The notes under the pieces were generated by a model that had not been told where the DNA came from, did not search any database, and saw only the letters and a program-made list of their open reading frames with translations. Shown here in pieces: positions 28,586-28,847 of a stretch of DNA of 64,000 bases. Source of the stretch: Felixounavirus AN17P8; the sequence record OZ035742.1; one strand, given 5' to 3'. Position 1 is the stretch's first letter; each line of letters opens with the position of its first letter. The position numbers and the translations under genes were made by a program.

Positions 28586-28646
28586 ACTTTAGTTGATTGT
28601 TAAGTTGTTTGTAAAGAACCCTCAACAGAAGACTCTTTAGAAACTT

Positions 28647-28783
28647 GGTAGATTTTTAACGTGGCTACTACCATCCACCCATACCTCACCTAACAACACC
28701 TAACAACACAAAACTACACCCCACACCACCGCACCACACCAAACATCACTTAAAAACCTTCTTAGAAGACTCTTAAGTGATGC
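28647..28783. repeat. composite structured non-coding element, copy C
   Basis: hairpin 1 with third stem variant (ggtag / loop atttttaacgtggcta / ctacc), box cccatacctcacc, nearly G-free C+A tract, hairpin 2 almost identical to copy A (one substitution). Confidence 0.65.
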
Positions 28784-28847
28784 TGGTGAGTACCCGTTGG
28801 TTTATGCTGCTCAGTATACTCACCAAATTTTCTATGTCAACAACTTT

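Follow-up and report, generated by a model that had tools for sequence, protein, structure and literature searches.

Viral Interference Programmable Repeat (VIPR) loci have recently been reported in phages, where they encode a minimal RAMP protein, Vipr, an accessory gene, vap, and guide RNAs termed vrRNAs (bioRxiv 10.64898/2026.04.26.720920 and 10.64898/2026.04.26.720927). According to these preprints a vrRNA consists of 9-16 YNNGG repeats, in which GGY is conserved and NN is hypervariable, followed by a 3' tail that is invariable and, in the SUSP1 clade, folds as a pseudoknot. SUSP1 itself has a single vrRNA, vrRNA1, before the vipr-vap pair, placed directly ahead of vipr, and three more after the pair; a vrRNA of about 100 nt is reported to co-purify with Vipr and to silence its target. 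Here we describe an intergenic element, copy C (28647-28783), in the region 28586-28847 of a 64,000-nucleotide stretch of Felixounavirus AN17P8 (OZ035742.1; the whole stretch is referred to as the window). An earlier note, made from the letters alone, had described copy C as the third copy of a structured element composed of two hairpins, a box and a C+A tract. This element is already known, as a vrRNA gene of a SUSP1-clade VIPR locus. We consider it very probable that copy C is the vrRNA1 gene of a type II VIPR locus in a Felix O1-like phage, that its product is the guide RNA encoded immediately before vipr, and that it is transcribed from the minus strand.

The companion preprint describes cryo-EM structures from SUSP1 in which one Vipr protomer sits on each repeat; the resolved vrRNA1 ribonucleoprotein comprises 12 repeats with 12 protomers, and a pseudoknot that caps the RNA at its 3' end. 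The GGY bases are contacted there by Vipr residues H17, D177, R138, W178, R179, C173, E71 and M72, and a preprint legend (fig. S12) states that GGY substitutions abolish silencing. By analogy, the guide of the window locus would be expressed as an RNA of about 100 nt bound by Vipr, each YNNGG repeat binding one protomer of the 195-aa RAMP protein, and the protomers would build a helical filament. The GGY bases would be flipped into protein pockets and the NN dinucleotides displayed, these pairing with double-stranded DNA while every third target base is skipped. The 3' pseudoknot would cap the filament, and binding would be expected to repress transcription of a competitor, mainly a satellite island of E. 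coli.

Vipr, the repeat code and predicted satellite targets

The protein encoded next to copy C was compared with SUSP1 Vipr (locus L020) and was found to be 98% identical over its 195 aa, with all the named GGY-contact residues at the same positions. An AlphaFold model generated from 36 homologues reached a pLDDT of 94.5, and a C-terminal motif of 12 residues is invariant or nearly so among these homologues. Its fold is that of Vipr, a small RAMP in which an RRM core is combined with a glycine-rich loop and a thumb. Its start codon is the ATG at 28570, since the database homologues are 195 aa long; the GTG at 28585 chosen by the open reading frame (ORF) finder falls inside the Shine-Dalgarno sequence GGAG. 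Pfam returned no family for the ORF 27983..28585 (vipr) or for the next gene (vap1). As in the minimal locus described for VIPR, vipr is accompanied by one vap gene and by long flanking intergenic regions holding vrRNAs, and no cas1/cas2 or other cas genes and no CRISPR array were found near the locus.

From IMG/VR, 24 loci with a homologue of the 200-aa ORF were fetched, and 82 unique units were parsed from 22 loci. In the resulting YNNGG logo position 1 is T in 89% and C in 10% of cases, position 4 is G in 82% and position 5 is G in 97%, while positions 2 and 3 hold only about 0.1 bit. Tract length is a multiple of five in 80 of the 82 units, with 10-19 repeats and a median of 13, and SUSP1 vrRNA1, when parsed in this way, has 12 units, matching the 12 protomers of the published complex. 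Pairwise comparison of orthologous units gave an identity of 0.35 for NN, where 0.28 is expected by chance, of 0.82 for Y..GG and of 0.99 for the tail. The earlier note was thus right that the tract is constrained by composition and period and not by sequence, the sense strand being (YNNGG)n. It was also right that the C+A tract is nearly free of G, as 28679-28743 has a single G on the plus strand and carries ctaacaacac twice in tandem at 28690-28709. Across the window, C-rich and G-poor stretches occur only at 27149-27239, 27283-27372, 27415-27484 and 28658-28776, all in one orientation and confined to the two intergenic regions 27040-27540 and 28586-28847. The three tracts of 27040-27540 keep a strict 5-nt period, with ACC at 10 of 10 successive positions, and copy C follows the same register when parsed from its tail. 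The window holds four guide units and not three copies, the minus-strand orientation of the genes and the strict 5-nt period having been missed in the earlier note.

The tail of copy C, of a type that we call t3, folds as an H-type pseudoknot. In stem S1, GTGG (28678-28675) pairs with CCAC (28664-28661), and in stem S2, TGGTAG (28673-28668) pairs with CTACCA (28651-28646). Four tail types were recognised, with an S1 of 4 bp and an S2 of 6-8 bp, and both stems covary: 90.9% of cells are paired as against 25-42% with slid partners, and in 9 of 12 pairs both partners change. The invariable 3' pseudoknot of the SUSP1 clade is present in this locus. Two smaller signatures reported by the earlier note were also recovered, namely the box CCCATACCTCACC, exact at 27291, 27423 and 28678, and the loop motif of its hairpin 1, which recurs at 27266, at 27398 and, in a form with one mismatch, at 28653.

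Evidence for a guide function comes from the targets. According to a figure legend of the preprint, the baseplate proteins of the targeted satellite and of SUSP1 share 72% identity. A BLAST comparison of the orthologous gene of the window (13513..14313) with 5,426 complete E. coli genomes showed that 474 of them carry a chromosomal gene for a phage baseplate protein, the best matches showing 92-93% DNA identity over about 70% of the window gene. The island is about 11.5 kb long, carries genes for a serine recombinase, a tape-measure protein, the baseplate protein, an HNH protein and an N6-adenine methyltransferase, and was found at three insertion sites: yciI/tonB, within a DUF72 gene between yecN and yecD, and next to wrbA. 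Guides were scored against 15 satellite variants (L030-L044) out of the 474 satellite-bearing genomes. With a one-base skip, 58 of the 82 guides reached at least 80% NN match and 20 reached at least 90%; with skips of 0, 2 and 3 bases, 0, 1 and 3 guides, respectively, reached at least 80%. The one-base-skip code is independently reproduced by this comparison.

Three of the four window guides match the satellite; copy C does not. For vrRNA4 the predicted site is L044 7600-7634 (22/24), in a 387-nt satellite gene, and for vrRNA3 it is L041 10874-10908 (20/24, the first eight units perfect), in the tape-measure gene. Both of these coding hits keep the reading frame, and it is the wobble position that is skipped. 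The vrRNA2 site, L041 8348-8379 (19/22, eight core units perfect), is intergenic and lies about 120 bp upstream of a 705-nt gene. The tract thus carries guide information and is not a passive spacer. Beyond the satellite, exact xNN scans (NN pairs separated by one skipped base) with the four window guides gave nothing in metagenome and genome contigs and a single hit in IMG/VR viral contigs, to a giant-virus metagenome-assembled genome (L029) with 20 specified bases, which is most likely due to chance. BLAST of the guide array against the complete E. coli genomes gave no match, and no self-target was found in the window for any of the four guides.

Several early ideas for the element, namely a TRAP-like attenuator, an R-loop origin, a Shine-Dalgarno-like run, mini-ORFs (MGS*, MGGW*), a Chi-like decoy and a tRNA-CCA sponge, were dropped as the protein fold and the target matches agreed with VIPR. 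The satellite has repeats of its own. At 8393-8445 of variant L030, within a 2.5-kb unannotated stretch, there are four tandem 13-nt units (GGTTAAGAAGGTC), which are iteron-like and are not YNNGG guides. We had considered this G-rich stretch as a guide array belonging to the satellite, and rejected it on account of the 13-nt repeat.

The junction hairpins

The 40-nt hairpin 2 of the earlier note was confirmed at 28743-28782. One other copy, at 27351-27390, differs by one base, and 100 shuffles gave 0 such matches. The earlier note had taken absence from relatives as the finding that would speak against this hairpin; it was found in 22 of the 22 related loci examined, and its conservation is genuine. 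On the sense strand this form, H2a, folds into a stem of 19-20 bp with a UAA loop at -21 kcal/mol (z about -6.2), as against -13.2 kcal/mol with internal loops for the plus strand. A second form, H2b, is found in units that follow the terminator or a t1 tail. Its outer stem is wholly replaced in sequence relative to H2a with the pairing retained, and a third hairpin, H2c, gives -13.6 kcal/mol on the sense strand and -8.9 kcal/mol on the plus strand. RNAalifold applied to 30 H2 variants returned a 16-bp consensus in which 6 pairs are compensatory and three pairs, G.U or U.G, hardly vary. Since these pairs would mismatch on the plus strand, the structured molecule is the minus-strand RNA, and the earlier note had read the element antisense. 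H2 is a conserved sense-strand RNA hairpin and the sole undescribed detail of the element.

The earlier note had suggested that hairpin 2 is a sequence-specific recognition site; on this view it would be bound as DNA or RNA by a protein, and the tract would be a compositional spacer. In its favour, copies A and C differ by one base in hairpin 2 while their tracts are wholly different, and a 25-nt core, AGRGTCTTYTAAGAGGGTYTTTTAA, is common to all H2 variants in the same pentamer register. We nevertheless regard it as improbable. The replacement of the outer stem between H2a and H2b with pairing kept, together with the 6 compensatory pairs, points to selection on the fold, and the tract itself carries target information. 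In SUSP1 the protein recognises the GGY motifs and the 3' pseudoknot cap, which corresponds to hairpin 1 of the earlier note. The Vipr contacts published in the companion preprint are to GGY, and the text of both VIPR preprints makes no mention of a 5' hairpin.

As the resolved complex is described as repeats plus a pseudoknot, with no 5' hairpin mentioned, the mature RNA so described would not include hairpin 2, and its reported length of less than 100 nt fits the tract and tail only. The locus has five H2 hairpins, one at each vrRNA-unit boundary and none after the last unit. Each stem has 16-20 bp, and its 3' arm continues into the first pseudo-repeat without a break in the pentamer register. 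We tentatively propose, as a possibility somewhat short of an even chance, that H2 is an undescribed fourth component of type II VIPR arrays, a boundary or processing signal that would stop the 3'-to-5' polymerisation of Vipr and/or direct the cut by which each guide is released.

The strand on which these structures form also bears on two further explanations of the element. The first is a plus-strand Rho-utilisation (rut) site that stops antisense transcription, which would account for a plus-strand tract of about 65-100 nt that is C-rich and nearly free of G. However, rut sites are not characterised by a strict 5-nt register or by conserved GG and Y, the NN positions match satellite DNA, and the G.U pairs on which the flanking structures depend can form on the minus strand only. 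Moreover, no plus-strand promoter is aimed into the region, where genes, promoter and structures are all on the minus strand, and we therefore find this explanation scarcely credible. An element acting at the DNA level, either a replication origin with iterons or a packaging or terminal-repeat signal, would be in keeping with tandem intergenic repeats beside replication genes such as ligase, and with the older GenBank labels, which say only 'DR_4' or 'repeat_region'. On the other hand, the record of phage UAB_Phi87, which has experimental 608-bp terminal repeats, does not open at this locus but next to the tRNA cluster. The covariation, G.U pairs included, points to RNA, and in the distant relatives examined the tracts have the same orientation as the genes beside them. 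It is thus extremely unlikely that the element works as DNA in this manner.

Copy C as a probable guide gene

By position, register and tail, copy C is a regular vrRNA1. Its NN series reads TT GT GC GG GG GT TT GT TA GT TA GA AT, which predicts the site TTxGTxGCxGGxGGxGTxTTxGTxTAxGTxTAxGAxAT. Several observations weigh against assigning it a guide function. The best score of copy C in the 15 satellites was 18/26, with no site above the level of shuffled guides (mean 18.1, maximum 20). Six perfect units at L031 6397 are off the wobble position and equal the null maximum, and variants with unit-gapped alignment or with 1-3 units deleted gave none above the null. Exact xNN scans with the copy C pattern found no target in IMG/VR viral, metagenome and genome contigs. 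Five of its 13 units are degenerate (TGGTG, TGTAG, TTTTG and TGTTG twice), which places copy C in the top 15% of a family with a mean of 20%. With regard to the other parts of the locus, a DNA-binding (winged-helix or helix-turn-helix-like) fold of vap1 was unconfirmed, there being no Pfam match and a pLDDT of 68 for the single-sequence model. Hairpin 2, for its part, is most likely a junction hairpin that would limit the Vipr filament at its 5' end and/or mark a cleavage site in the precursor, a role suggested only by its position and covariation.

These observations could be explained if copy C were a decayed or non-targeting unit, kept as a 5' untranslated region or as an autoregulatory Vipr-binding site for the expression of vipr. 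It does sit between the promoter and the ribosome-binding site (RBS) of vipr, and its lack of a target and its degenerate GGY motifs are joined by the internal 10-nt duplication. We consider such decay unlikely, for a number of reasons. The tract is shared with phage nataliec, where it is identical, and a 151-nt stretch that holds it is 98-99% identical in the Salmonella phages GE_vB_7A and Mushroom. Degeneracy does not preclude targeting, as guides with about 40% degenerate units match the satellite, including a 15-unit guide of phage Dune at 27/30, and guides at the same position in other phages reach 22/26. In addition, the preprint itself found no natural target for 21 of the 41 guides of the clade, and the satellite sample comprised 15 of the 474 genomes only. 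We infer that copy C itself may be an active guide, or one aimed at an unsampled element.

The duplication in copy C has a counterpart. The vrRNA3 tract holds a tandem 10-nt duplication at 27302-27321, which likewise spans two repeat units. In locus L011, a sister phage has a guide of 10 units (tail at 2761) from which this vrRNA3 duplication is absent; at the vrRNA3 site in the tape-measure gene of the satellite, it matches at all ten codon positions. Judging from these tracts, guides seem to change by unit slippage besides substitution, and the window adds examples of guide change by duplication of two repeat units.

Layout of the locus and comparison with known systems

Nearly all of the 258 phage records matched by the window belong to Felix O1-like phages (of Escherichia, Salmonella and Shigella), and the best matches reach 92-96% identity. 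The type II VIPR locus extends from 28840 to 27131 on the minus strand, which also carries all the genes surrounding copy C; copy C is flanked by a DNA ligase gene (28848..29987) and by vipr. Read along the minus strand, the order is a sigma-70 promoter, hairpin 2, the YNNGG tract, the pseudoknot tail, a second hairpin, the RBS and vipr, vap1, a terminator and three more guide units. The coordinates are listed in the table below. The promoter is presumed, from its sequence, to be the start of a vrRNA1-vipr-vap1 transcript. The assignment of vap1 is a putative one made by position, and the gene has a narrow distribution.

Table. Features of the VIPR locus of the window, in minus-strand order
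Feature	Coordinates	Strand	Description
Sigma-70-type promoter	28813..28840	-	TTGACA-N16-TATACT; 11/12 consensus matches; directly after DNA ligase stop codon
H2a, 5' junction hairpin (hairpin 2 of the earlier note)	28742..28784	-	20-bp stem, UAA loop; ends at start of repeat tract
vrRNA1 guide tract (copy C)	28679..28743	-	13 YNNGG units
vrRNA1 3' tail, type t3	28646..28678	-	H-type pseudoknot; hairpin 1 of the earlier note and part of its box
H2c, junction hairpin	28607..28644	-	between vrRNA1 tail and vipr RBS; core as in H2a/H2b (AAAGAGUCUUC ... GAGGGUUCUUU)
vipr	27983..28570	-	195-aa minimal RAMP (Cas7-like) protein
vap1 (putative), accessory gene	27540..27980	-	146 aa; assigned by position after vipr, as in the SUSP1 locus
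Intrinsic terminator	27505..27528	-	AGCCTC-TTCG-GAGGCT then T run; 3' of vap1
vrRNA2 unit	27391..27512	-	H2b 27512-27474; 11 YNNGG units 27478-27424; tail t2 27423-27391
vrRNA3 unit (copy A of the earlier note)	27260..27391	-	H2a 27391-27351; 12 YNNGG units 27351-27292; tail t1 27291-27260
vrRNA4 unit	27131..27259	-	H2b 27259-27217; 12 YNNGG units 27223-27164; tail t4 27163-27131

The three downstream vrRNAs (27131-27528) sit behind the intrinsic terminator, and a scan found no sigma-70-type promoter between the terminator and the units; the array may be transcribed by read-through or from a phage promoter of unrecognised type. Tails of type t1 that have CCTTTTT after them themselves resemble weak terminators. 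About 650 bp past the array, on its vrRNA4 side and on the same strand, there is a gene for an HTH_3 (Cro/C1-type) regulator at 26150-26479. A tRNA scan of the window found nothing at all, and Rfam covariance models gave no match anywhere in the window at gathering score.

Among close relatives, 1-3 units are found upstream and 1-4 downstream of the gene pair, the SUSP1 locus showing the same 1 + 3 layout as the window. The gene-adjacent unit always has tail t3 and the last downstream unit always t4. Some metagenomic relatives with no more than 37-40% identity in Vipr also have NNGGT tracts, of 13-20 repeats and in every case on the sense strand; they are clearest in L028 and are seen also in L026 and L027. 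In L028 (2880-2965, 3548-3790 and 4250-4320) and L026 (3600-4040), YNNGG-like tracts of 13-20 units lie directly between a stop codon or terminator and the next RBS, and they are without the Felix-type pseudoknot tail and the H2 hairpin. These are probably other VIPR array architectures. A different arrangement was seen in L023 (4650-5350), where at least 6 copies of a conserved unit of about 45 nt with a GC-rich hairpin (GAACGAAACCGCTTCGCAAGAGGCGGTTTCC...) alternate with short G-rich stretches. Rfam models, hammerhead included, gave no match at gathering score in the distant VIPR-like loci.

Parts of these units have been annotated as 'DR_4' or 'repeat_region' without a function since 2009, in phage wV8 (EU877232, 59418-59475 and 60811-60868) and in the records of phages dune and nataliec; the Felix O1 genome paper has no discussion of these repeats. 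Our results imply that repeats so labelled in Felix O1-like genomes are guide genes. VIPR, to which the element belongs, is a newly reported class of RNA-guided DNA recognition that uses a RAMP filament to read a gapped GGY/NN code, and it has been proposed to be older than CRISPR. The window makes only a small addition to this picture: the one-base-skip code and the satellite as its target are reproduced independently and by computation alone, and there are four further natural guides, three of which have predicted targets. It also adds a conserved junction hairpin that could explain how guides are delimited.

The closest described system is the type II VIPR locus of SUSP1. The two loci share a Vipr that is nearly identical, the gene order, the arrangement of one plus three vrRNAs, YNNGG repeats and a 3' pseudoknot tail, and the guides of both match the same E. 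coli satellite under a one-base skip. They differ in the guide (NN) sequences and in the downstream tails, which are t1-t1-t4 in SUSP1 and t2-t1-t4 in the window. Copy C, moreover, has more degenerate GGY motifs than its SUSP1 counterpart, and none of the searches made with it found a target.

The leader RNA of the trp operon bound by TRAP in Bacillus carries 9-11 (G/U)AG triplets that are 2-3 nt apart. The likeness lies in triplets with a 5-nt period on an mRNA leader, each taken by one subunit of a protein oligomer. The triplet, however, is GAG or UAG and not GGY, the protein forms a ring and not a RAMP filament, and in VIPR the spacers carry DNA-targeting information.

The crRNA of class 1 CRISPR systems, with its backbone filament of Cas7 (Csm3/Cmr4), resembles the vrRNA in having one protomer for a fixed length of guide, periodic unpaired positions, and a variable guide capped by a conserved structured handle. 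A CRISPR array was itself considered for the window and rejected, as conserved flanks (H2 and tail) alternate with pentamer tracts and not with free spacers, and repeats of 24-50 nt accompanied by cas genes were not present. Unlike class 1 CRISPR, VIPR has no CRISPR repeats or unique spacers, and its period is 5 nt with 2 informative bases as opposed to 6 nt with 5. Its target, according to the preprints, is double-stranded DNA read with gaps. If H2 does act as a boundary or processing signal, it would be functionally analogous to the hairpin of the CRISPR repeat.
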